Source of the DNA: a virus
Lineage: Duplodnaviria > Caudoviricetes
Virus record (IMG/VR): IMGVR_UViG_3300009424_000011
Coordinates: 32,805-96,804 of that record
Length of the DNA: 64,000 nt
Strand: one strand, 5' to 3'
This document shows positions 3,263-64,000 of this stretch, piece after piece. A program made the position numbers and the translations under genes. Each line of letters opens with the position of its first letter. Position 1 is the first letter of the stretch. The notes beneath the pieces are model-generated. The model was not told where the DNA came from. It ran no database searches and saw only the letters and a list, made by a program, of their open reading frames with translations.

Positions 3263-5029
3263 ATGCCAGTCTCCCCGAACGAGGTCATTATCGATCTCGG
3301 GCGCGACGCTCTGCTCGCTCCGCACGCCATTGAAACCCTACAAGATCGCTACATGGTTGAAGGGGAGACCAGTCCTCAACATGCGTTCGCCCGCGCCTCG
3401 GCAGCCTTCGCCGATGACGCCGCACATGCCCAGCGACTCTACGATTATGCTTCCAAGGGCTGGTTCATGTTCGCCACCCCGCTACTCTCCAATGGCGGCA
3501 CCGAGCGCGGTCTTCCGATCTCCTGCTACCTCAACTACATGGCCGACAGCCGCAAGGGCATCAACGCCCACTACGAAGAGACTTCGTGGCTCTCCAGCCT
3601 CGGTGGTGGTGTTGGTGGCTACATCGCTGTGCGCGGCGCGGAAGGCACATCCAAGGGTTCGGCGTCGTCCGGCGGCATCCCGTTTGTCTGCATCCTCGAT
3701 CGCTACATGCTGGCGTTCTCGCAGGGTAAGACCCGGCGCGGTAGCTACTGCGCCTATCTCGACATCTCGCACCCGGAAACGGATGAGTTCCTTGAGCTTC
3801 GCAAGCCGTCGGGTGGTGACGCAAACCGCAAGGCACTGAACCTTCACCACGCCATCAACATCACAGACGACTTCATGCGCGCCTGTCTGGCCGATGCTGA
3901 GTGGAACTTCCGCAGCCCGAAGACCGGCGAGATCAAGAAGACGGTCAACGCCCGCGCTCTGATGCGGAAGATCGTCGAGACGCGCCACCAGACCGGCGAG
4001 CCCTTCATCCTGTTCAAGGACACCGCCAATCGTGCGCTGCCCCAGCCTCTCAAGGACAAGGGCCTCAAGATCAATCACTCGAATCTCTGCACGGAGATCA
4101 TGCTTCCGACGGCCGAAGATCGCACAGCGGTCTGCTGCCTGTCGAGTCCGAACCTCGCGGCCTACGATGAGTGGAAGGATCACCCGCTCTTCATCGAAGA
4201 CCTCATGCGGATGCTCGACAACACGCTGGATGACTTCATCGCGAAGGCTCCTCCGGAACTGTGGCGTGCTGTCGCCTCAGCAAAGAACGAGCGGTCGGTC
4301 GGTCTGGGCGGCATGGGCCTCCACACCTACTTGCAGGATCACGGGATCGTGTGGGGCAGTGACCTTGCTCGCGCCTACAACGTGATGATGTTCGAAGACT
4401 TGCAGAAGAAGACGATCGCGGCTTCGCTCAAGCTCGGTGCTGAACGCGGTGAAGCGCCAGACATGGCCGGCACCGGGCATCGCTTCTCCCACCGCATGGC
4501 TGTGGCTCCGAATGCTTCGTCGTCGATCTTCGTGCCGCAGGGTCCGATCTCGCCGTCCATCGAACAGTGGCCGGAGAACATCTTCATCCACAAGACTCTG
4601 ACCGGTTCGCACACCGTTAAGAATCCGTCGCTGGTTCGCCTGCTCGAAACCAAGGGCAAGAACACCAAGGAAGTCTGGAAGGACATCCTGCTCCACGAAG
4701 GTTCGGTCCAGCATCTGGACTTCCTGACCGATCAGGAAAAGGCTGTGTTCGCCACCGCCTTCGAGACCGACCAGCGCCTGACCATTCAGATGGCGAACGA
4801 TCGTTCCGGCTACGTCGATCAGGGCGTTAGCCTTAACATCTCGGTGCCCGCATTCGTGGACGCCGACTACATGCTCGAACTGCACTTCATGGCTTGGGCC
4901 GGTGGTAGCAAAAGTATGTATTATGTGCGGTCCAAGGCTCCCAAGAAAGCTGAGAACATGAACACCAAGGTGGCTGCGCTGGAAATGGTCATGCCCGAAG
5001 ATGAAGGATGCCTCGCCTGTGAAGGATAA
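3263..5029 (+). CDS. nrdA: ribonucleoside-diphosphate reductase class Ia, alpha subunit
   Basis: ATPLLSNGG, ISCYL, SNLCTEI (catalytic NLCxE), AVAPNASSS, SMYYVRS and a C-terminal CLACEG. Confidence 0.95.
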   Translation: MPVSPNEVIIDLGRDALLAPHAIETLQDRYMVEGETSPQHAFARASAAFADDAAHAQRLYDYASKGWFMFATPLLSNGGTERGLPISCYLNYMADSRKGINAHYEETSWLSSLGGGVGGYIAVRGAEGTSKGSASSGGIPFVCILDRYMLAFSQGKTRRGSYCAYLDISHPETDEFLELRKPSGGDANRKALNLHHAINITDDFMRACLADAEWNFRSPKTGEIKKTVNARALMRKIVETRHQTGEPFILFKDTANRALPQPLKDKGLKINHSNLCTEIMLPTAEDRTAVCCLSSPNLAAYDEWKDHPLFIEDLMRMLDNTLDDFIAKAPPELWRAVASAKNERSVGLGGMGLHTYLQDHGIVWGSDLARAYNVMMFEDLQKKTIAASLKLGAERGEAPDMAGTGHRFSHRMAVAPNASSSIFVPQGPISPSIEQWPENIFIHKTLTGSHTVKNPSLVRLLETKGKNTKEVWKDILLHEGSVQHLDFLTDQEKAVFATAFETDQRLTIQMANDRSGYVDQGVSLNISVPAFVDADYMLELHFMAWAGGSKSMYYVRSKAPKKAENMNTKVAALEMVMPEDEGCLACEG

Positions 5030-54413: not shown

Positions 54414-54551
54414 GTCATTTCTCCGTTTGCGGTGATTCGGTTTTTCCAGAAAAGGCCGATTCGGTCAAGCACTTTTTCCAGAAAATCCCGATTTTTAGGG
54501 TTAACGAATTTCGCCGTTTTATTAAGGTTAACCAGAGATTACCGCCAAAGA

Positions 54552-54580
54552 AAAAGCCCGATTCGGCGAATCGGGCTTTT
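54552..54580 (-). terminator. intrinsic terminator
   Basis: AAAAGCCCGATTCG-G-CGAATCGGGCTTTT; the stem itself contains GANTC sites. Confidence 0.75.
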
Positions 54581-54586
54581 CCGGGA

Positions 54587-54862
54587 TCAGGCTTCCGGGG
54601 CTTTCACCGGATAGGCCCGAATCATCGGGCACAAACGGCCCTCGGCATTTTCCGGGTAAAATTCGGTTCGCACCAGATCGGCGACCTTATCGGCAGCTTC
54701 CCAGCTTTCAGCGCTGAAACGAATCGTTTTCGGCTGATTCGACCAGCCGAAGTGATAGGCGAGTCGGGGATTGTGAAGGCCGCACTTTTTCGCGGCGGCA
54801 AGCAGTTTTTCCGGATTCTGCCCGTCGCTGATGCCCGAGCCTGTCAGTTCGAATCTTTCCAT
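54587..54862 (-). CDS. early hypothetical protein
   Basis: GGAG RBS; own promoter module. Confidence 0.7.
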   Translation of the reverse strand: MERFELTGSGISDGQNPEKLLAAAKKCGLHNPRLAYHFGWSNQPKTIRFSAESWEAADKVADLVRTEFYPENAEGRLCPMIRAYPVKAPEA

Positions 54863-55050
54863 GGTCTGGCTCCGTTTCCAGTGATTCGGGTCTAAACGCG
54901 CCAGCCGATTCGGTCAAGCACTTTTTCCACTTTGATGGTTAACGATTTCGGCCGATCGGTTAAGGTTAACCTGAATTTACGATTTTGGAGCCCGGCCCCT
55001 TTTCTCAGTGAATTAGGGTCCCGGCCCCTGTTGTCAGGGGCCGGTTCCTG

Positions 55051-55248
55051 TCAGGCCATCAATTCGGCGAGTAATTCATCATCGCTCAGCTTGTCAGTCC
55101 CAGACTCGGCGTTCATCCGGGCGATTTCTGCGAAACAAGCCTTGCGGTGGGCGCGGGCCTTGCGCTTGGCGGCAGGCGTTCCGAATGCAAGGATCATGTC
55201 GCAAAGGTCGAGGTCGGCGGCCATTGCTTGTTCGGTGGAATTGCTCAT
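55051..55248 (-). CDS. early hypothetical protein
   Basis: GGAGACAGACC-ATG; own promoter module. Confidence 0.7.
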   Translation of the reverse strand: MSNSTEQAMAADLDLCDMILAFGTPAAKRKARAHRKACFAEIARMNAESGTDKLSDDELLAELMA

Positions 55249-55404
55249 GGTCTGTCTCCGTTTCCAGTGATTCGGGTCTAAACATACCAGCCGATTCGGT
55301 CAAGCATTTTTTCCACTTTGATGGTTAACGAATTTAACCGTTTTGTTAACCTTAACACCCGGTTACCAGACAAAGAAAAGGGCGGGATTTCTCCCGCCCC
55401 TTTC

Positions 55405-55599
55405 TCAGATGATCCGGCGTCCGGTCTGTTGGATTTCCCGGCCATGTGCGGTGAAGCGCGGGCCGGTGTATTCGGTTGGGTTGGGGATATGCTTGCTTGC
55501 CTGTTCGGCGGCGTGAGCGGCGAGTTCGGCGCGGGCCTTGATGATTGCCACGGTGGCGGTGATCAGGAAGGCGATTGCGAGGATCAGGATGGTGGTCAT
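55405..55599 (-). CDS. early single-TM protein
   Basis: MTTILILAIAFLITATVAIIK...; GGAGA RBS. Confidence 0.65.
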   Translation of the reverse strand: MTTILILAIAFLITATVAIIKARAELAAHAAEQASKHIPNPTEYTGPRFTAHGREIQQTGRRII

Positions 55600-55666
55600 T
55601 TGCTTGTCTCCGTTTCGATGATTCGTTTTCGCATAGTCCATCGATTCGGTCAAGCACTTTTTCCAC

Positions 55667-55867
55667 CTAATAGACATATTCCTGATGAAAATCGCCGTTT
55701 TCGTCCGTCCAGTCTTGGCGAATATCGACGTGCAATTCTTCGATCTCGTCCGGCTCATAATGGCCGCGCTGATAGGCGAATGCCTCCCGCAAGGTGAGAA
55801 AGTGGGTGATGTCTTTTTCGCCTTCATATCCGGCGTTTTCCACGATAACGAATCGGCGGTCTGTCAT
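55667..55867 (-). CDS. early hypothetical acidic protein
   Basis: GGAGG RBS; coupled to the upstream gene. Confidence 0.65.
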   Translation of the reverse strand: MTDRRFVIVENAGYEGEKDITHFLTLREAFAYQRGHYEPDEIEELHVDIRQDWTDENGDFHQEYVY

Positions 55868-56028
55868 TGATCTTCCTCCCGGCGGATGGTCTGGCGGCGC
55901 TCTTCCATCTTACCTTGTGCGATGATGTCAGCCACGCATTGATTGACGTGGCGGCGGCGCTCTTCGCCCATGCGGCGTTGAACGATTGCCCGGTCGCGCT
56001 TGTGGCGATATTCTGCCAGCGTTTCCAT
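55864..56028 (-). CDS. early basic hypothetical protein
   Basis: METLAEYRHKRDRAIVQRR...; TAATG overlap. Confidence 0.55.
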   Translation of the reverse strand: METLAEYRHKRDRAIVQRRMGEERRRHVNQCVADIIAQGKMEERRQTIRREEDQ

Positions 56029-56270
56029 TAGCGGCGATTCTTGCGATAGCGGTGGGGATACTGGCGGCGCAAGTTTGCGTCGTCGTGCAGCGCCAGCATC
56101 GACAAGGCGGGCAGGCAAAGCCCGCACATAGCAAGGGCGTTAAAGAGCATCTGGGTGACGGTCCGGGCCTCAGGGGCGAGCGGGGTTAGGTCAATGTTCG
56201 CTGTCATGTAGAAAGCACCATAACCAGCTAAAAGGCCGAGGGCCATAAGGGTTGCAGAAAGAAAACGCAT
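56028..56270 (-). CDS. early two-TM membrane protein
   Basis: GGAGACAGACC-ATG; two hydrophobic helices. Confidence 0.65.
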   Translation of the reverse strand: MRFLSATLMALGLLAGYGAFYMTANIDLTPLAPEARTVTQMLFNALAMCGLCLPALSMLALHDDANLRRQYPHRYRKNRR

Positions 56271-56393
56271 GGTCTGTCTCCGTTGTTTGTGATTCGGGTC
56301 TAAGGTGATTCGCTGATTCGGTCAAGCACTTTTTCCAGCTAATTGGTTAACTAATTCGGCTGATCTGTTAACCTTAACACTGGGTTAAGGCCA

Positions 56394-56418
56394 AAAGAAA
56401 AGGGGCCGAAGCCCCTCC
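56394..56418 (-). terminator. recurrent terminator AGGGGC-TTCG-GCCCCT-(C/T)TTT (similar copies near 57321, 58131, 59290, 62291, 63611)
   Basis: UUCG hairpin (UUUG in the 62291 copy) plus U tract on the - strand. Confidence 0.8.
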
Positions 56419-56420
56419 CC

Positions 56421-56633
56421 TTATGCTGCCCGGTAGTGTTGCAGGCGAGTGATCCGAAGCCCCTGCTGTCCCGAGCGATCCAGCGACTTACGCCAGCCAG
56501 CAAACTCTTCGCTTGTGATGTTGTGCAGGCTGCAAACGTCTTCGAGGGTGGTGGTGCCGTTGTCCACATCGGCGATGATGGCGGCTTTGCGCTTTGCGGT
56601 GTAGCGAGCGGTGGTCTTGATCTTGATCTTCAT
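56421..56633 (-). CDS. sciP: SciP / DUF1153-family CtrA inhibitor homologue
   Basis: RYTAKRKAAIIADVDNGTTTLEDVCSLHNITSEEFAGWRKSLDRSGQQGLRITRLQHYR matches the DUF1153 pattern RW..RRKA.VV.AV..G......AC..Y.L..EEF..W...I.R.G..GLR.TR.Q.YR (recalled, not searched). Confidence 0.8.
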   Translation of the reverse strand: MKIKIKTTARYTAKRKAAIIADVDNGTTTLEDVCSLHNITSEEFAGWRKSLDRSGQQGLRITRLQHYRAA

Positions 56634-56753
56634 TGTGTGTCTCCGTTGCTGTTGATTCGTTTCTAGGATGGTTAACTGATTCGGTCAAGCACTTTTTCCA
56701 CTTTATTCTTAATTCGCGTTAACCTTAACAAATTCATCAATTCCGTTAAGGAA

Positions 56754-56972
56754 TTAGCGCTTTCGCGCCAATCCCCTCGCGGTCAGGGCTGCTGCCAGCC
56801 GAGTCCAGTCGTCAACGGTGTTGTGCCAAGGGCCGATGTTGAGAGCCCGAATCATGTTGTTGAAAGGCACGGTGCCGACTTGGCGGACGTAGTTTGCGGC
56901 TTGGCGATCAATTTCCTCCTCCGAGGCTCCAGCCGCGATTGCCTTGGCGATGGCATCTTTCTTGCTGATCAT
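56754..56972 (-). CDS. early hypothetical protein
   Basis: ATGA overlap; GGAG RBS. Confidence 0.65.
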   Translation of the reverse strand: MISKKDAIAKAIAAGASEEEIDRQAANYVRQVGTVPFNNMIRALNIGPWHNTVDDWTRLAAALTARGLARKR

Positions 56973-57130
56973 GCCGCGATCTCCACGATGATGAACGTGA
57001 CGGGCCCAGCATAGGCCACGGAAAGGATTTCTTCGCCTTCCACTGCCAGCACGTTTGCGGCGATGAAAGCGGCGTTGATGTGATTGGCTTCGACCTTGTA
57101 GGTCCGCAGGGTGGTCTTGACTTCGAACAT
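56969..57130 (-). CDS. early hypothetical protein (53 aa, not in the ORF track)
   Basis: MFEVKTTLRTYKVEANHINAAFIAA...; AGGAGA RBS. Confidence 0.6.
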   Translation of the reverse strand: MFEVKTTLRTYKVEANHINAAFIAANVLAVEGEEILSVAYAGPVTFIIVEIAA

Positions 57131-57337
57131 AGCCTGTCTCCTGTGTGAGTTACCGGGCGAGCCTTGCTGCTGCTCTGCCAGTCAGTAGGTGCCGCCCGGT
57201 GATTCGGGTCTAGGGCGATTCGCTGATTCGTGCAAGAACTTTTTCCACTTCAATTTCACTTTGATGGTTAACAACTTCGCCCGATCGGTTAACCTTAACG
57301 TGGGGTTACCGGGCAAAAAGAGAGGGGCCGAAGCCCC

Positions 57338-57682
57338 TCATTTCCAGCGCGGATGCGATCCGGGATCGACTCCAAGTTCTTCCATGATGAGGCGGCGAAT
57401 CCTGCTGTGTTCCGCATTCATCACCATGGAAAAATGAACGCCTGACACGTCGTCGCAGTCCCTGCCGCCGCGTAACGCTATTGCAATGTGATCAAGCCCC
57501 TTGAGAGCCCACCAGAGATGCATAAGAGCATCTTCCATGTCGAAGGGGTCCGACTTCTCTCCGGTCTCTTTCTCGCGCTCTTTGAGGCGACAGAATTGCG
57601 AAGCGGCTATGCCGATGATGCGAGCAGCAAAGGGCTCGATCTGGGCCGAGTCGAAAGTCACGGGGCGGATGCGGTCGCTCAT
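57338..57682 (-). CDS. early hypothetical protein
   Basis: Coupled ORF ending at a terminator. Confidence 0.65.
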   Translation of the reverse strand: MSDRIRPVTFDSAQIEPFAARIIGIAASQFCRLKEREKETGEKSDPFDMEDALMHLWWALKGLDHIAIALRGGRDCDDVSGVHFSMVMNAEHSRIRRLIMEELGVDPGSHPRWK

Positions 57683-57861
57683 GCTGCCATGCTCCAGCGG
57701 TCGCGCTCATACAGACGGGCGATTTCCTCAGCGCCCGAGCGGGTCGAGTCGCATCCGAGCCAATCACCACAGAAGCGGGCAACCCATTGCTGCGTCGCAC
57801 GTCCGCACCATTCGAGGCGCACGCTATAGCGGGAGTCGAGGGTGTTGCGAGCGCGGCTCAT
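57679..57861 (-). CDS. early hypothetical protein
   Basis: ATGA overlap; YSVRLEWCG...WVARFCGDWLG. Confidence 0.6.
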   Translation of the reverse strand: MSRARNTLDSRYSVRLEWCGRATQQWVARFCGDWLGCDSTRSGAEEIARLYERDRWSMAA

Positions 57862-57989
57862 GCCGCCACTCCCCGATGCTTGGGGTTGCGGCGGAAAGAG
57901 CCCTTGCCTTTACGAGCGCGAACCTTGCGAGGGGCGAGGTGAGCGCTGGCGAGCGAGGCGGCAATGGGATTCTTGCGGATGTTTTGCAT
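57858..57989 (-). CDS. arfA: ArfA-like alternative ribosome-rescue factor (43 aa, not in the ORF track)
   Basis: MQNIRKNPIAASLASAHLAPRKVRARKGKGSFRRNPKHRGVAA; N.I.A.L...R.....KGKGS(Y/F).R..KH with ArfA spacing; GGAGA RBS; first gene behind a promoter module. Confidence 0.7.
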   Translation of the reverse strand: MQNIRKNPIAASLASAHLAPRKVRARKGKGSFRRNPKHRGVAA

Positions 57990-58151
57990 GATCTGTCTCC
58001 GATTGATGATTCGTTTTCGCACGAGTCACCGATTCGGTCAAGCACTTTTTCCACTTTGATAGTTAACCCCAAACGTCAATTTGTTAACCATATTCGTTAA
58101 GGTTAACAAATTTCACCGGGCAAAAAGAAAGAGGGGCCGAAGCCCCTCCCC

Positions 58152-58256
58152 TCAAACCTTGGCCTTAGCGCGCTGGCGCGCTTGCCGGTAAGACACCGCC
58201 GAGATGATCCCGGAAAAGGTGTTGTTGATGTAAACGTGGTAGGTGTTGATCTGCAT
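58152..58256 (-). CDS. 34-aa early peptide (not in the ORF track)
   Basis: MQINTYHVYINNTFSGIISAVSYRQARQRAKAKV; GGAGG RBS; own promoter and terminator. Confidence 0.6.
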   Translation of the reverse strand: MQINTYHVYINNTFSGIISAVSYRQARQRAKAKV

Positions 58257-58368
58257 GACTGCCTCCGTTGCTGTTGATTCGTTTCTAGGCGAACCAACCG
58301 ATTCGGTCAAGCACTTTTTCCACTAATTACAAAAAAAAAAGTTTGGTGAGGGACCTAAGCCCCTCGCC

Positions 58369-58635
58369 TTAGTCGTCTGCCAGCTTTCCAACGTAGCAAT
58401 ACGAATTGTATTGTTCCGGGTGAATTTCGCCGTCCTTACACAGCATGTCCGACCAGTTGCTAAATTCTTCATTGATAGCAACCGAATCGTTTTCGCCGTA
58501 GTGTGCGATCACATCGGGAAGCACTTCTTCGTCAAAGCGCTTGGAAAGCTCCTCTTCGCTGGCAATCTGGCCGTTGTCCTCGGCGTAGAGTTCCACCATT
58601 TCGAGGGTGTCCACGCGATCCCAGAAGCCAGCCAT
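58369..58635 (-). CDS. early acidic hypothetical protein
   Basis: MAGFWDRVD...NWSDMLCKDGEI...; TAATG overlap. Confidence 0.65.
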   Translation of the reverse strand: MAGFWDRVDTLEMVELYAEDNGQIASEEELSKRFDEEVLPDVIAHYGENDSVAINEEFSNWSDMLCKDGEIHPEQYNSYCYVGKLADD

Positions 58636-58721
58636 TAGCGGCGGCCCTTTGCGATCCACGAGGAAAGAATGGCGATGCGCGCACGCTTGGCGGCAAGGCG
58701 GCGTTTCTGGTGTCGGCTCAT
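58635..58721 (-). CDS. 28-aa basic early peptide (not in the ORF track)
   Basis: MSRHQKRRLAAKRARIAILSSWIAKGRR; GGAGA RBS. Confidence 0.5.
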   Translation of the reverse strand: MSRHQKRRLAAKRARIAILSSWIAKGRR

Positions 58722-58888
58722 AGTCTTTCTCCGTCCGCTTGATTGCGGTGATTCGTTAGTGCCAGTCTAAGCCGATTCGGTCAAGCAGTTTTTCCACTTA
58801 CTTTTCACTTTGATGGTTAACAAATCCCGGCCGACCGTTAACCTTAACAAACCGTTACCAGCCAAGAGGCGGGCCGAAGCCCGCTCCC

Positions 58889-58981
58889 TCAATAGAGATG
58901 CGATTCGCATTCAGGTGAAACAGGGTCGCCCCAATCGCAATCCAGTTCCTTGATCTGGCTGTCCAACCATTTACCATTCGG
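58889..58981 (-). pseudogene. 5'-truncated gene remnant between an intact promoter and terminator
   Basis: The frame PNGKWLDSQIKELDCDWGDPVSPECESHLY* has no RBS or start and begins right at the promoter's CCGAAT. Confidence 0.4.
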
Positions 58982-59210
58982 GTATGGACCGATTCGCTGA
59001 TTCGGTCAAGCACTATTTCCACTTTGATGGTTAACAAAATCAGCCAATCTGTTAACCATATTCCTTAACGGATTCGGCCGCCGGCGTTAACCTTAACAGA
59101 TTGGTCAGTTTCGTTAACCATCTGCTGGTGGGGAGCGTGGGGCTCGGTCGGCTGGTTCGGTCGGTCGGTCCGGGCTCCTGCAAAATGGCGGCGATCATGA
59201 AAATCGAAAT

Positions 59211-59272
59211 GATCCAAACCCAAAACCGGGGCGATCCAAAGTCGCGTCGATCCAAAGCGGCGGTGATCCAAA
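59211..59272. repeat. four GATCCAAA direct repeats
   Basis: At 59211, 59233, 59249 and 59265. Confidence 0.75.
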
Positions 59273-59310
59273 ACGACCAAAAAGCAAAGAGGGGCCGAAG
59301 CCCCTCTCCC

Positions 59311-59586
59311 TTAGTCGCCTTGATAGTCCGGTGCAGCTTCATAGACGAAGTTGGCTTCCGCCCGCCGGATTAGTTCGGCTGTGTTCCAGCCTCTTTCGTG
59401 GGCCACATGGAGCAAATCACCGATAAGGTCTTGGATGGCCGTGTAGTCGTCACCCTCACCTTCTTCGCAGTCGGCGCATTGCGCTTCAAGCGTCGAGTAA
59501 GGCCGTCCGCCATAGGTTTCGATGGTGAAGGTATCGAGGGCGTTCTTTGCCCAGTCGATCCGGGATTGATTGGCTTCGTGCATCAT
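59311..59586 (-). CDS. early hypothetical protein
   Basis: AIQDLIGDLLHVA...A..NF..E motif; coupled ORF. Confidence 0.65.
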   Translation of the reverse strand: MMHEANQSRIDWAKNALDTFTIETYGGRPYSTLEAQCADCEEGEGDDYTAIQDLIGDLLHVAHERGWNTAELIRRAEANFVYEAAPDYQGD

Positions 59587-59870
59587 CCTACATCCTCTTC
59601 TTCGCCGGTCAGTTCCTGCACCAGACAGACATAGGGGCGAGTCGCGCTGTGGTTGATGGTCATAGCAGGGCTCAGCGACAGTTTCGGCATATCAGGGCCA
59701 TAGGTTTCGCCGGTCACGAACAGGTCGTCTGCCACTTGCTGGCGGCGGTCGGAAAATTCGATGTAGTCCCCTTGAAGGGCGCTAATCTTTTCCCGTGCGT
59801 CGTCTTCGTTCTCAGCGATCACATAGGCGGTCGCGGTGATGCTAATGTCCGCATTGTAAAGTTTGGGCAT
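59583..59870 (-). CDS. early hypothetical protein
   Basis: MPKLYNADISITATAYVIAENEDDAREK...; AGGAGA RBS. Confidence 0.65.
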   Translation of the reverse strand: MPKLYNADISITATAYVIAENEDDAREKISALQGDYIEFSDRRQQVADDLFVTGETYGPDMPKLSLSPAMTINHSATRPYVCLVQELTGEEEDVG

Positions 59871-60087
59871 TGGTCTGTCTCCTGCGCTTGAGTGCGCCTG
59901 ATTCGTTTGCCCGTTCCCAGCGATTCGGTCAAGCACTTTTTCCACTTTAATAGTTAACTCATTTCATCAATTTGTTAACCTTAACGATTGGTTACCAATT
60001 TGGAAACCCGGCCCTTGTTCTCAGTGGGCCGGGTCCCGCCGGTGTTTGGAAACCCGGCCCCTGTTCTCAGGGTGCCGGGTCCCGGTA

Positions 60088-60393
60088 TTAGATGGCGTAG
60101 AGCCGGGCATGGAGCCCGGTCAAAGCTTCCACATCAATGGAGCCGCCCAGATCGTAATTGCTCTGACGTGCAACCCGCTTGCTGAGGTCTGCCATGGCCC
60201 CGCTCAGACGTTCCGCCGGTGTGCCCGAGCAGTAGTAGCCGCCACCAAAGTAATTGCGTTCGGTGCCTGTCTCCCGGTCGGTGTTGTAGTTGTGGACCAC
60301 AAACTCTTCGCGGTTTTCGTTGTAGCGCAGCGCGATGCCGCCCGGCATGGTCATGTCATCGCCACGGGTCGGGATTTCAAAAAGTGTCTTCAT
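60088..60393 (-). CDS. early hypothetical protein
   Basis: MKTLFEIPTRG...; AGGAGACAGACC-ATG. Confidence 0.65.
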   Translation of the reverse strand: MKTLFEIPTRGDDMTMPGGIALRYNENREEFVVHNYNTDRETGTERNYFGGGYYCSGTPAERLSGAMADLSKRVARQSNYDLGGSIDVEALTGLHARLYAI

Positions 60394-60562
60394 GGTCTGT
60401 CTCCTGTTTTCCGGTCTCTTCCGGTAAACCCTGATTCGCATTTTCCAGCGATTCGGTCAAGCACTTTTTCCACTTTGAAGAATGGTTAACACGATAGACC
60501 GATTCCGTTAACCTTAACGAATGTTTACACCCAAAGAAAAAGGCGGGTTGCCCCGCCTTTCC

Positions 60563-60961
60563 TTATTCGCCGAGATAGAACATTCCGACAAAGGCTTGCA
60601 GGGCCTCGTCTTCCTGTTCGGTGGTGTCATGGTAGGTGGTCCACGGCGTGCCCCAGTCCTGCCACTGCAAGAAAGGTTCGCCGCCGATGTCACCATATAC
60701 CCGCAAGGCCGGTCCGCCGGTCGAGAGCAGAATCGCGAACTCTTCCGGCTCCGATTCGCCGCCCGGTGCCCGCCATCCGTCGCGCACTTCCACGGAAAGC
60801 GGCATTTCCTGAATCCGGTTCTGCACGTCGTCCGGGTCGGTGAAGGTCTCCCCGTCGAACTCAGCCGATTCGGCTCCGTCGTTCAGGGCTTCCAGCGCGG
60901 CCATCGCCCCGACGATTGTCGAGAGCCAGCCCCGTGCATTGCTGATTGCGTGTTCGCTCAT
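60563..60961 (-). CDS. early acidic hypothetical protein
   Basis: MSEHAISNA...ILLSTGGPALRVYG...LQWQDWGTPW; GGAGA RBS. Confidence 0.7.
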   Translation of the reverse strand: MSEHAISNARGWLSTIVGAMAALEALNDGAESAEFDGETFTDPDDVQNRIQEMPLSVEVRDGWRAPGGESEPEEFAILLSTGGPALRVYGDIGGEPFLQWQDWGTPWTTYHDTTEQEDEALQAFVGMFYLGE

Positions 60962-61182
60962 TTGGTTTGTCTCCGTTGTTGGTGATCCCGGTCTAGGGTG
61001 ATTCGCTGTTTCGGTCAAGCACTTTTTCCACTTCAAAGTTGGTTAACAAGTGAAACACTTCTGTTAAGGTTAACGAACCGTTACCAGAAAGAAAAATGCC
61101 GGGGTGCATGATGCAACCCCGGCGGCGATGATCAGTAAGAACACACCCAGCAGCAGCCGGGCCACGGCGTCAAGGCAGCCCA

Positions 61183-61539
61183 TCAGCTTCGCAACTGTCG
61201 AGGGTCGCGATCCCAGCAAAAGATACGCGCAAGGCGTTCGTAGCTTGCCGGTGTGATGTTGTCCGACGGGTGCAGCGATTCATAGGTTTCAGCACCTGTT
61301 TGATAATCGCGGTCCGGGTCAATTGTGGAAAACCAGCGACCGGAATCCTCCATGCCATTACGGCCTAGGTATTGTTCAGCGTCCCGCAAGCTCCACTCCA
61401 AGTCTGAGTCATCCAGTTCATCGACCTGTTCGATTGATACCTTCATATGGAAGAAACGAGCCGGAAGGACGAATCCCCGTTCTTCGGCGTCGCCTTGTTC
61501 GGCGCTTTCCGGGGTCACAATTTCGTAAGTGATTCGCAT
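61183..61539 (-). CDS. early acidic hypothetical protein
   Basis: MRITYEIVTPESAEQGDAEERGF...; AGGAGA RBS. Confidence 0.7.
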   Translation of the reverse strand: MRITYEIVTPESAEQGDAEERGFVLPARFFHMKVSIEQVDELDDSDLEWSLRDAEQYLGRNGMEDSGRWFSTIDPDRDYQTGAETYESLHPSDNITPASYERLARIFCWDRDPRQLRS

Positions 61540-61709
61540 GGTCTGTCTCCTTTGTGGTGATTCGTTGGTGCCATTATCCACTGATTCGGTCAAGCACTTT
61601 TTCCACGATTAACAACCCACCCCTATTTGTTAAGGTTAACGGGTCCCTACCAGAAAAAGGTGAGGGGCAGGGCGACCAAACCCTGCCCCTCTGCCGAGAG
61701 CCCGAAGGC

Positions 61710-62156
61710 TCAATCGGCCGGAGTCAATTCCTTGTGGCGCTCTTTCTCCACGTATTCACGGGCGACAGCGAAGCCCATATATTCACGGGCCGTTTCCTGC
61801 CACGCCGCCCCAGCGATGAACGGGGTTTCGAGCGTCGCCACGTCTGCCTTGACGACAGCCTTGGCGTATTGATCCAGCGCCTGAAAGATGAAGGCGTGCA
61901 TCAACGGGGTCTTGCACCACGTCATGACCAGATTCATGAACTCGACATTGGTCAGCGCGGATTCCGGGTGCGGGTGCAACTCGCATCCATCAACCCGGTG
62001 GGTCTTGCCGTTCACGTCTGTGACGGTCCAGATGTCTTCGTTTTCATCAACACACCGCCCGATCGTGACGGTCTGCTTGGGGATGTAAACCCCAGTGGTC
62101 GATTCGCCGCCGTTGAAGGTCGTTTCGCGGCGCTTGAAAAGTGAGGCGTCTTGCAT
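61710..62156 (-). CDS. early hypothetical protein
   Basis: MQDASLFKRR...TNVEFM..VM; AAGGAGA RBS. Confidence 0.65.
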   Translation of the reverse strand: MQDASLFKRRETTFNGGESTTGVYIPKQTVTIGRCVDENEDIWTVTDVNGKTHRVDGCELHPHPESALTNVEFMNLVMTWCKTPLMHAFIFQALDQYAKAVVKADVATLETPFIAGAAWQETAREYMGFAVAREYVEKERHKELTPAD

Positions 62157-62312
62157 GGTCTTTCTCCTTCCGGCTCCGTGCCGGTGATTCGGTAATAGGC
62201 CGGTGATTCGATTCACGCAAGCACTTTCTCCATTTATTTTTCCAGTGGTTATCGGGCTGTTAACCTTAACGAATTTTTACAGACAAAAAGAGAGGGGCCA
62301 AAGCCCCTCCCC

Positions 62313-62564
62313 TCAGCGCGGGTTGGCCGGTCGAGAGCCGCCAACCCGTGGGAGATTGACCCCGTGCCATTCGAAGGCATGGGGCTCTTCCCGTGATCCG
62401 ACCGGGCTCGCGCCAGCTACCTTGAAGATCATTTCGGGCGTTTCGTCCGGCATTTCGTAATGGTCTCGCCAGACTTGAGTCACTTCCGCCACCGTGTTGG
62501 CAACCACGAACAAGTCGTAGTTTTCGCCGTTGAAGTGAGCAACGAAAAATAGCTTCATGTTCAA
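62313..62564 (-). CDS. early hypothetical protein
   Basis: GAGGAG RBS; coupled ORF. Confidence 0.6.
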   Translation of the reverse strand: MNMKLFFVAHFNGENYDLFVVANTVAEVTQVWRDHYEMPDETPEMIFKVAGASPVGSREEPHAFEWHGVNLPRVGGSRPANPR

Positions 62565-62833
62565 TACTCCTCGTGGCCGGTCCAGAACTCAGCGTGCCGT
62601 TCGCAGAGGGCGTTAAGCGCCTCTTTGTGATCATCCGAGAACCGATCCCAGAAGTCAGCGACCGAATCCATACCGTGGCAGGGCTCTTCCGATACTTCCG
62701 GCGACGGGGCCTTGTAATCGTTCACACAACCCCAAAGGGCGCTGTAAAGGCCGGGAACGGCGTCAACACCATCCCAACACTCAGCTACTTCGTCCGGGCG
62801 GATGTGGCTGAAATCTGCTGCTGCTTTGATCAT
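62561..62833 (-). CDS. early acidic hypothetical protein
   Basis: GGAGACAGACC RBS; own promoter module. Confidence 0.65.
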   Translation of the reverse strand: MIKAAADFSHIRPDEVAECWDGVDAVPGLYSALWGCVNDYKAPSPEVSEEPCHGMDSVADFWDRFSDDHKEALNALCERHAEFWTGHEEY

Positions 62834-63024
62834 TGGTCTGTCTCCGTTTCAACTGATTCGTTTCTAGGCGGTGCAAGCGATTTGGTCAAGAACTTTTTCC
62901 ACCGAACTCCACTTGTTGTTAACCTTAACGAATGGTTACCAAAAGAAAAGGGGCTGGCACGCGGCCAGCCCAGTTGCAAGGATAAGGAAGAGGACGCCCA
63001 CACCTAGGCGGGCGAGTGCGTCGA

Positions 63025-63474
63025 TCAATCCGATGTCTCGTCCTCCTCTTCCGGAACGTTCCACGTAATGAGGAACCACGCTTGACAGTATTCCTCGCAG
63101 CCGAAGCCGTCGTCCTCTTCGTCGCGGAAATCCAGCGAAGGATCGAAAGCTTTCCGGTCCAGTTCCATGGGATGAACGTCCACAAACGCACGCAGGATCG
63201 CTTTCCGAGCCTTGTCGTGGTCATAGCCAGCACGCTCACCAGCCAGATCGTAAGCCACCGAGTCGAACTCGCTCAGCAGTTCGTTCTTGACTTCACCGAT
63301 GGAAGTATCGCCGAAGACGATTGCGCCCAGCAGCAATTCGCCATCGCGATTGTGGTGGTCATTCAGAAAGGATGAAAGACAGGTATCGATATGAACGCAG
63401 GCGAAGCCGTCGTCCGATTCGTCGCGGCGAGCTTGTAGTTGCTCTTGCACCGAAGGTAGGAAAGGTGATGACAT
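63025..63474 (-). CDS. early acidic hypothetical protein
   Basis: MSSPFLPSVQEQ...; GGAGA RBS. Confidence 0.65.
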   Translation of the reverse strand: MSSPFLPSVQEQLQARRDESDDGFACVHIDTCLSSFLNDHHNRDGELLLGAIVFGDTSIGEVKNELLSEFDSVAYDLAGERAGYDHDKARKAILRAFVDVHPMELDRKAFDPSLDFRDEEDDGFGCEEYCQAWFLITWNVPEEEDETSD

Positions 63475-63633
63475 TTGGTCGTCTCCAAGCGCGGAATTGC
63501 GCTGAACTCTTGATAGGCGAGTCGTAGGTGATTCGCAAGCCAATTCGTCCAGAAGTTTTTCCACTTAGTTACCACGCTGTTAAGGTTAACGGCTGGTTAC
63601 CGGGCAAAAAGAGAGGGGCCGAAGCCCCTACTC

Positions 63634-63873
63634 TCAATCTTCGAAGTAGAGGTCCAGCAAGGCTTGTGCGGCCTCTTCCGTGGTGTCGAAGGGACCGCTC
63701 CAATCAGTGCAATCGAGATAGCCCGGAGCCGAGAGGCGTGCATAAATCTTGTCGTCTTCCAGATCGAGCCCGGCTTCCATAATCGCTTCCTGAATGTCCG
63801 CACCCATGTAGGATTGCGGCTTCATGAATGAGTCCTTGGCGGCTTCCTTGAGGCGTTCAATAGCTGTTTGCAT
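63634..63873 (-). CDS. early acidic hypothetical protein
   Basis: MQTAIERL...YARLSAPGYLDCTDWSGPFDT.EEA; GGAGACAGACC-ATG. Confidence 0.7.
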   Translation of the reverse strand: MQTAIERLKEAAKDSFMKPQSYMGADIQEAIMEAGLDLEDDKIYARLSAPGYLDCTDWSGPFDTTEEAAQALLDLYFED

Positions 63874-64000
63874 GGTCTGTCTCCGTTTCAACTGATTCGT
63901 TTCTAGGTGACCCAAGTGATTCGGTCAAGCACTTTTTCCACTTTGATGGTTAAGAAGATCGGCCGGCACGTTAACCTTAACGATAGGTTACCGGACAAAA

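Follow-up and report, generated by a model that had tools for sequence, protein, structure and literature searches.

A 43-codon gene on the minus strand of the window, the stretch of 64,000 nucleotides analysed here, has been confirmed by sequence comparison as a genuine homologue of the ribosome-rescue factor ArfA. The gene, referred to as mini-ArfA, is carried by an IMG/VR contig with an estimated completeness of 57% (record length 96.8 kb). Its homology, coding status, architecture and distribution were observed directly. The reading favoured here, and regarded as reasonably probable from the comparisons below, is that mini-ArfA would be an early, normally terminated minimal ArfA which recruits host RF2 to non-stop ribosomes. 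The features of the locus are as follows.

57858 to 57989, minus strand: mini-ArfA gene (P0001), 43 codons plus stop, ATG at 57989-57987 and TGA at 57860-57858
57996 to 58000, minus strand: Shine-Dalgarno sequence GGAGA, 6 nt 5' of the mini-ArfA ATG
58013 to 58045, minus strand: putative host-type promoter module with GTGC, a -35 element TTGACC (58041-58036), GAATC and a -10-like element GCGAAAAC (58020-58013)
58151 to 58128, minus strand: terminator of the preceding cassette
57855 to 57902, minus strand: hairpin over codons ~30-43 and the stop, with the loop on the Lys-His codons and GGGGAG in its 3' arm
57679 to 57861, minus strand: 60-codon ORF, whose ATG overlaps the TGA of the mini-ArfA gene (ATGA)
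57338 to 57682, minus strand: 114-codon ORF, last in the unit, overlapping the 60-codon ORF at its stop
57322 to 57339, minus strand: intrinsic terminator, GAGGGGC-TTCG-GCCCCTC followed by a T run, closing the three-gene unit

An earlier note, made from the letters of this DNA, had quoted the peptide and described it as the first gene behind a promoter with a strong ribosome-binding site. The quoted peptide is exact when checked against the frame in the window; GGAGA stands at the distance given above and its spacing to the ATG is kept in eight relatives, and the promoter module upstream is one of 16 copies. A longer frame of 54 codons opening with GTG at 58022 was also considered. Its GTG falls within the promoter's -10 region, and relatives do not conserve this longer frame; the 43-codon reading was therefore preferred.

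The promoter module, GTGC-TTGACC-GAATCGGT, lies ~40 nt beyond GGAGA, upstream of the gene. As GTGCTTGACCGAATCGGT at 58045-58028, it is one of 16 minus-strand copies within 54.4-63.9 kb (54455-63932), against 0.08 expected by chance. Alignment of the 16 modules gives the consensus GTGGAAAAA-GTGC-TTGACC-GAATC...CTAGAMC-GAATCA...GGAGACAGACC-ATG, that is, an A-rich upstream element, the -35 element TTGACC, a -10-like element CTAGAMC/GCGAAAAC, two GAATC sites and a start region GGAGACAGACC-ATG. The -10 element and the transcript start of the mini-ArfA promoter are inferred positions. Each module holds two GAATC (GANTC) sites, and most are followed by GGAGACAGACC-ATG, a small set of genes and a GGGGC-TTCG-GCCCC terminator. 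The same module is found 52-53 nt 5' of the ATG in all related phages, in which the genes downstream of the modules are shuffled and the ArfA-like gene remains first in its own cassette.

Bounded by the terminators at 58151-58128 and 57339-57322, mini-ArfA and the 60- and 114-codon ORFs form one transcription unit. The 60-codon ORF has a homologue in the related contig L010 within a different cassette, and the 114-codon ORF has one in L006 directly 3' of arfA. Neither these two ORFs nor the neighbouring cassette genes match a Pfam family, and their PHROGs matches are weak; an Rfam search of 56-60 kb returned nothing relevant.

The protein matches the Pfam ArfA family (PF03889) with 30.8 bits against a curated gathering cut-off of 25.5 (E 2e-7, profile positions 8-43 of 44), so that the profile search named beforehand as decisive for the label ArfA-like came out in its favour. 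A six-frame search of the whole 96.8-kb record gave the 43-residue peptide as the sole PF03889 match (E 8.5e-8, 29.1 bits). In addition, hhalign of the close-group profile against 13 marine gammaproteobacterial ArfA sequences returned 98.2% probability and E 4.6e-14 over 39 ungapped columns. It might be argued that this short, Lys/Arg-rich protein is a basic peptide serving some other purpose, for instance as an RNA chaperone or in binding nucleic acids, and that its likeness to ArfA is purely compositional; the single-sequence match to ArfA in the PDB is weak (E 0.3), and searches with the 43-residue protein gave no match in NCBIfam and just a weak, unnamed family in PHROGs. This is considered very improbable, for the profile matches are specific and also span the non-basic N-terminal helix. 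Moreover, the best five PDB sequence matches are all E. coli ArfA, with query residues 4-39 aligned ungapped to residues 11-46 of the 72-residue chain, and among 14 control genomes searched with the ArfA profile at E up to 0.01 E. coli alone matched. BrfA of Bacillus subtilis and ArfT of Francisella are likewise small rescue factors depending on a release factor, and BrfA has a KH motif and a channel-binding tail (PMC8012679). However, no sequence relation to either was detectable here, the Pfam and PDB matches being to ArfA only, and a non-stop mRNA serves as the message for BrfA.

Public data contain seven proteins of 43-44 residues with 79-95% identity, and DNA of relatives was obtained from five IMG/VR contigs and six further metagenome contigs. 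The ATG and GGAGA of these genes are as in the window, with a stop after 42-44 codons (14/14 close relatives). When 12 sequences are compared across their first 38 codons, variation is seen at 34 third positions but at just 17 first and 15 second positions, and pairwise dN/dS has a median of 0.17 (range 0.016-0.51; phages XM05 and L02, which need gapped alignment, were left out). The excess at third positions and the low median dN/dS indicate that mini-ArfA is translated and subject to purifying selection. In 11 of 14 relatives the stop and the start codon of the following gene overlap, though that gene differs among phages, and this points to translational coupling on an intact message. The short format extends further: 80 wider viral homologues from IMG/VR loci have a median of 45 codons, and 66 of them end within 13 residues past KGKGS..R. 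One metagenomic relative of 110 residues (P0011) runs from the first 32 mini-ArfA residues into an unrelated acidic protein, whose C-terminal end resembles that of the gene located just before the ArfA cassette of L010; a deletion or fusion with loss of the channel tail is the probable origin.

ArfA is disordered off the ribosome. At an offset of +7 the phage protein corresponds without gaps to residues 8-50 of E. coli ArfA, and the stretch of the E. coli protein given in the earlier note proved identical to the PDB chains. Kept positions include I4 (Ile11), N7 (Asn14) and A11 (Ala18), with L18 standing for Phe25, and the whole channel segment, K27-G-K-G-S31, R34 and K37-H38, equivalent to K34-S38, R41 and K44-H45. 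Within the close group of eight sequences K27, G28, K29, G30, R34, K37 and H38 are invariant, and S31 alternates with Ala. The positions kept (Ile11, Ala18, Phe25, KGKGS, Arg and KH) have been described as functional in E. coli (PMC5378476, PMC8012679): residues 15-24 form a helix at the decoding centre and the KH motif touches the mRNA channel (PMC8012679), whereas Ala18 packs on Ile11 and on C1914 of 23S rRNA helix 69 (H69) (PMC5378476).

The claim that only the active core is encoded, with a proper stop codon, agrees with this span: the stop lies in frame, is conserved and falls 5 residues past KH, and the hydrophobic tail of E. coli ArfA is absent. In E. coli the active form itself lacks the last 17-18 of 72 residues, and on the ribosome the protein is ordered up to residues 46-48 only (PMC8012679). 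The aligned span thus holds all that was modelled on the ribosome for E. coli ArfA (YhdL, PF03889; PDB 5MDV, 5MGP, 5U4I and 5H5U) (PMC8012679). Nevertheless, the two differ in several respects. The phage gene has 43 rather than 72 codons, is without residues 1-7 and the C-terminal tail, does not keep Leu19 and Leu24, and is phage-borne; its stop overlaps the next gene, whereas E. coli arfA has an RNase III/terminator stem-loop followed by more codons. As to the phage protein, marine gammaproteobacterial ArfA proteins (Vibrio, Pseudoalteromonas, Photobacterium and Colwellia; L014-L089) have the KH(K/R)G stretch in common with it and likewise end in an aromatic residue and then Ala; they differ from the phage protein in their length of 59-76 residues, in ~20 extra N-terminal residues with an invariant Arg-Gly in a GRG motif, and in a longer E(S/P)Y..AA ending.

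Two of these differences count against the reading as an RF2-dependent rescue factor. Leu19, Leu24 and Phe25 of E. coli ArfA bind Trp319, Val198 and Phe217 of RF2, and Thr7 and Lys8 contact 16S rRNA helix 44 while the N-terminus contacts ribosomal protein S12 (PMC5378476). In the ungapped alignment two of three residues of this hydrophobic patch are changed (Ser12 for Leu19 and His17 for Leu24), and E. coli residues 1-7, with the N-terminal contacts, have no counterpart. Mini-ArfA might accordingly be an ArfA-derived plug that fills the vacant channel with no productive activation of RF2 and competes with tmRNA-SmpB or ArfB. Such a plug could block the tagging and degradation of phage products, prevent RNase R decay of phage mRNA, or hold host ribosomes. 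The fully kept channel-binding tail, the missing seven residues and the altered contacts to RF2 Trp319 (PMC5378476) would suit it, as would the single channel shared by SmpB, ArfA and ArfB (PMC8012679) and the dependence of most hosts of this class on tmRNA plus ArfB (PMC11633108). It is nonetheless judged unlikely, because the conservation lies elsewhere. Residues R5 to R21, the N-terminal half with the helix region, are nearly invariant in the close group, and the last eight residues are the most variable; together with the kept residues this argues for more than a channel plug. Asn7 and Ala10 are conserved in more than 90% of 84 family members, as is Leu13 in a 19-sequence subset, and a plug needs none of them. 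Furthermore, mutation of Ala18 abolishes RF2 activation, and its phage equivalent does not vary within the close group and is matched by an invariant Ala in gammaproteobacterial ArfA.

The 3' end of the gene coincides with the hairpin, which has a folding energy of -32 kcal/mol and a z of about -2.4 to -2.8 in the window. Among 14 relatives z ranges from -4.6 to +0.9 (mean -1.75), with six below -2, so that about half of them have the hairpin; four, with z between -0.3 and +0.9, lack it. Two controls differ from this moderately: the first 66 nt (5' part) of the same genes are unstructured (mean z +0.9), and the 3' ends of 34 other ORFs of the region have a mean z of -0.76, 21% of them being below -2. 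The site is occupied by either of two pairings, CCGCCGC/GCGGCGG with endings such as Gly-Val-Ala-Ala, and GCCCAAGC/GCUUGGGC with the ending Ala-Trp-Ala. The hairpin of XM05 is the strongest, yet no sizeable gene follows it. No T-run terminator was found inside the mini-ArfA ORF.

In bacterial arfA the message is cut or terminated within the ORF, so that tmRNA normally destroys the product (PMC8012679). A similar regulation is conceivable for the phage gene: if the 3' hairpin were cut, for example by RNase III, most messages would be stop-less and product would appear only when tmRNA is saturated, the in-frame stop being a fallback. The position of the hairpin over the last ~12 codons and the stop, its low z in 6/14 relatives, the two pairings at one place, the unstructured 5' part of the same genes and the case of XM05 all fit this proposal, and E. 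coli arfA employs such a stem-loop (PMC8012679). We consider it improbable, however, on several grounds. The four relatives without a hairpin and the frequency of comparable structures at other 3' ends of the region weaken it, and the stems of 11-16 bp are short for RNase III. KH is invariant while the codons in the loop change synonymously, which indicates that translation reaches at least codon 38, and the aromatic-Ala ending is similar to the one seen in AT-rich ArfA genes of Gammaproteobacteria, so that translation appears to reach the end. The overlap of start and stop with a changing downstream gene also suits coupling through an intact message. Since the 3' arm carries GGGGAG, the likely Shine-Dalgarno sequence of the next gene, the simplest reading is that the hairpin is a coupling hairpin for that gene, the strong hairpin of XM05 being hard to fit to this view. 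From the sequence, constitutive production of mini-ArfA is plausible, and the protein is probably made without tmRNA control.

The ArfA genes of Vibrio, Pseudoalteromonas, Photobacterium and Colwellia (e.g., L014:3938-4135 and L024:3917-4135) end in E(S/P)Y(L/S)xAA with a real stop, a terminus similar to that of the ssrA tag. The phage group (57858-57872 in the window) ends in Val-Ala-Ala, Gly-Ala-Ala or Ala-(Trp/Phe/Tyr)-Ala, and the same bases form the 3' arm of the hairpin. The aromatic/Ala C-terminus may be a built-in degron or a ribosome contact.

Under the favoured reading, host RNA polymerase would transcribe mini-ArfA from its early-type cassette promoter, and translation would proceed from the strong ribosome-binding site to a normal stop coupled to the next gene. 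Where a ribosome has stalled at the 3' end of a broken message, the basic C-terminal half (KGKGS..R..KH) would insert into its vacant mRNA channel. Host RF2 would then be kept by the N-terminal helix in its open form, the one able to hydrolyse peptidyl-tRNA. Having no hydrophobic tail and apparently no non-stop design, the protein would stand outside the tmRNA control typical of bacterial ArfA, so that rescue capacity could be available from the onset of infection and ribosomes caught on degraded mRNA of host or phage would be released. Binding to the ribosome, dependence on RF2, timing and benefit to the phage are what we infer from the kinship with ArfA. A broader version is put forward tentatively, as somewhat short of an even prospect: mini-ArfA may be a deregulated minimal RF2-dependent rescue factor, brought into hosts that mostly lack the pathway and expressed at the very start of infection, which keeps ribosomes available during destruction of host mRNA or blunts mRNA-cleaving abortive-infection toxins, with the 3' hairpin and the aromatic-Ala C-terminus as a phage-specific layer of control in place of that by tmRNA.

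The partner for such a reaction would have to come from the cell. No RF-1-domain protein, Pth, SmpB or RtcB was found in the 96.8-kb record, and with neither release factor nor Pth encoded there, hydrolysis must come from a host factor. In alphaproteobacterial RF2 the Trp of the switch loop (Trp319 equivalent, IGWGHQIRSYVL) is kept in 4/4 sequences examined, and the one RF2 placed against the E. coli chain coordinates also retains residues equivalent to Val198 and Phe217. On the other hand, ArfA-RF2 pairs are species-specific (PMC8012679), which, together with the lack of ArfA in most sampled Alphaproteobacteria, speaks against taking compatibility with host RF2 for granted. The record also encodes 27 tRNA genes on one strand (G000:C1:3122-10279, L103), located upstream of the window and covering 18 amino acids as called by ARAGORN (Val and Tyr not called); no tRNA or tmRNA was detected in the window and no tmRNA in the rest of the record. 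The 27 tRNA genes and the ArfA-like gene together suggest a heavy investment of the phage in translation.

The nearest isolated relatives of the record are the Erythrobacter phages XM05 and vB_EliS-L02, not Caulobacter phages, and the host is presumably of Erythrobacter type, judging by these nearest isolates alone. The suggestions of the earlier note that the factor could counter mRNA- or tRNA-cleaving defences, or intersect with tmRNA and its effect on replication timing in Caulobacter, are speculative. XM05 and L02 share the promoter module, the ribosome-binding site and a gene of 42-43 codons, and the preceding cassette is conserved in XM05. Genes of the mini-ArfA format are common among alphaproteobacterial phages and occur in at least 80 IMG/VR contigs, and a profile search of 1.84 billion representative proteins gave 79 clusters at E <=1e-3, mostly of 32-70 residues. 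A tblastn search of 50,697 phage records, in which the query was the window protein or P0018, a relative of it, gave the following phages, all of which except that of Microcystis infect Alphaproteobacteria.

Caulobacter phage Cr30: unannotated ORF
Brevundimonas phage Kikimora: annotated alternative ribosome-rescue factor
Brevundimonas phage Gurke: hypothetical protein
Roseobacter phage CRP-212: hypothetical protein
Citromicrobium phage RXM: annotated ArfA (PMC8953757)
Pelagibacter phage HTVC027P: ArfA domain noted (PMC12753301)
Microcystis phage Mwe-JY26: hypothetical protein

The kind of phage ArfA described here is therefore already known at the level of annotation in several phages, and the window gene adds a member. 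The earlier note called the gene unannotated. This is correct for the present record, as it is for L02 and Cr30, although genes of this kind already bear the name ArfA elsewhere among phages; the homologue in XM05 is labelled hypothetical and that in L02 carries no annotation. The annotated genes (vB_CbaS-RXM gp10, HTVC027P gp30 and that of Kikimora) are likewise short ORFs of the same family in alphaproteobacterial phages, but their identity is just 41-59%, and RXM gp10 is a 60-codon frame with a different tail. The printed remarks on the RXM and HTVC027P genes are one-sentence annotations without analysis or tests (PMC8953757, PMC12753301), and gp30 of the pelagiphage HTVC027P was found to be expressed early and late (PMC12753301). 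The homologues in XM05, L02 and Cr30 are also more distant (58-64% identity), XM05 having no sizeable gene downstream and Cr30 being T4-like, with an RNA ligase encoded two genes after its copy.

Among bacteria, ArfA has been regarded as restricted to a subset of beta- and gammaproteobacteria (PMC8012679), and in one survey arfA was found in 0/2,376 Alphaproteobacteria (PMC11633108). In an even, class-level sample of 401 alphaproteobacterial genomes, PF03889 at E <=1e-3 matched 10, or 7/398 after removal of three seeded ones. Caulobacter vibrioides, one of the 14 control genomes, gave no ArfA match even at E of 10; the host strain of Cr30 (C. crescentus CB15) belongs to this species. A degenerate-pattern scan of 185,579 species genomes, with patterns derived from the 19-sequence subset of the 84-sequence alignment, recovered 155 relatives, the best 80 of which comprise marine Gammaproteobacteria, ~35 Pelagibacteraceae, Phyllobacterium and three alphaproteobacterial MAGs. 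The gene in SAR11 (Pelagibacteraceae) has 35-39 codons with its own stop and no KH (hhalign 97.5%), and is located at L085:3983-4099 and, in L013, L044, L047, L051, L057, L066, L069, L073, L080, L084 and L090, at ~3983-4111. Its flanks are syntenic in 23 genomes, with a response regulator, a PfkB kinase, endonuclease III and DapB as neighbours, and the SAR11 copy is accordingly native. Like the phage gene it has its own stop and the pattern NPxAxxL...KGKGSF.R; unlike it, it sits in a housekeeping neighbourhood, is without KH and ends straight after the basic run. ArfA is thus rare in the Alphaproteobacteria sampled, SAR11 being an exception with a native copy, and these chromosomal copies contradict the published 0/2,376 (PMC11633108). 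They also imply that a mini-ArfA with a stop codon is no invention of phages. The ArfA-like gene of Phyllobacterium myrsinacearum (L011 / L111) has 54 codons and no KH, and lies on a contig of 118,187 bases for which an equal-sized IMG/VR viral record exists; it is likely borne by a prophage or plasmid-phage and not native.

Since mini-versions are carried by dozens of viral contigs, several isolated alphaproteobacterial phages and SAR11 chromosomes, published accounts, which confine ArfA to some beta- and gammaproteobacteria and count none in 2,376 Alphaproteobacteria, need correcting. Such versions have been missed by DNA-level surveys and by cut-offs on ORF length. If active, the phage peptide would be the smallest natural ArfA, marking the minimal part that senses an empty mRNA channel and switches on RF2 in a class said to be without ArfA, and would provide a natural example of ArfA freed from tmRNA control. 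It would also mean that phages directly manage the availability of ribosomes, here beside the 27 tRNA genes of the same phage. Its value lies in the small size, in hosts largely without the pathway and in the question of regulation.

Further observations concern the surroundings and the composition of related genes. In the early region of RXM (L004:693-2183) the antirestriction gene ardA is followed, three genes further downstream, by the ArfA gene, a location that fits an early or counter-defence region. The ArfA-like ORF of Cr30 (L005:1950-2102) overlaps the start of a 141-codon gene, which itself overlaps the annotated RNA ligase, and this may be a neighbourhood of translation repair. In five IMG/VR sequences (L146, L150, L156, L183 and L131, match ~1501), an ArfA-like N-terminal half is fused to a C-terminal domain of ~60-100 residues with the conserved pattern GNYTKP...GGKGGAPGQWS...KAQ.
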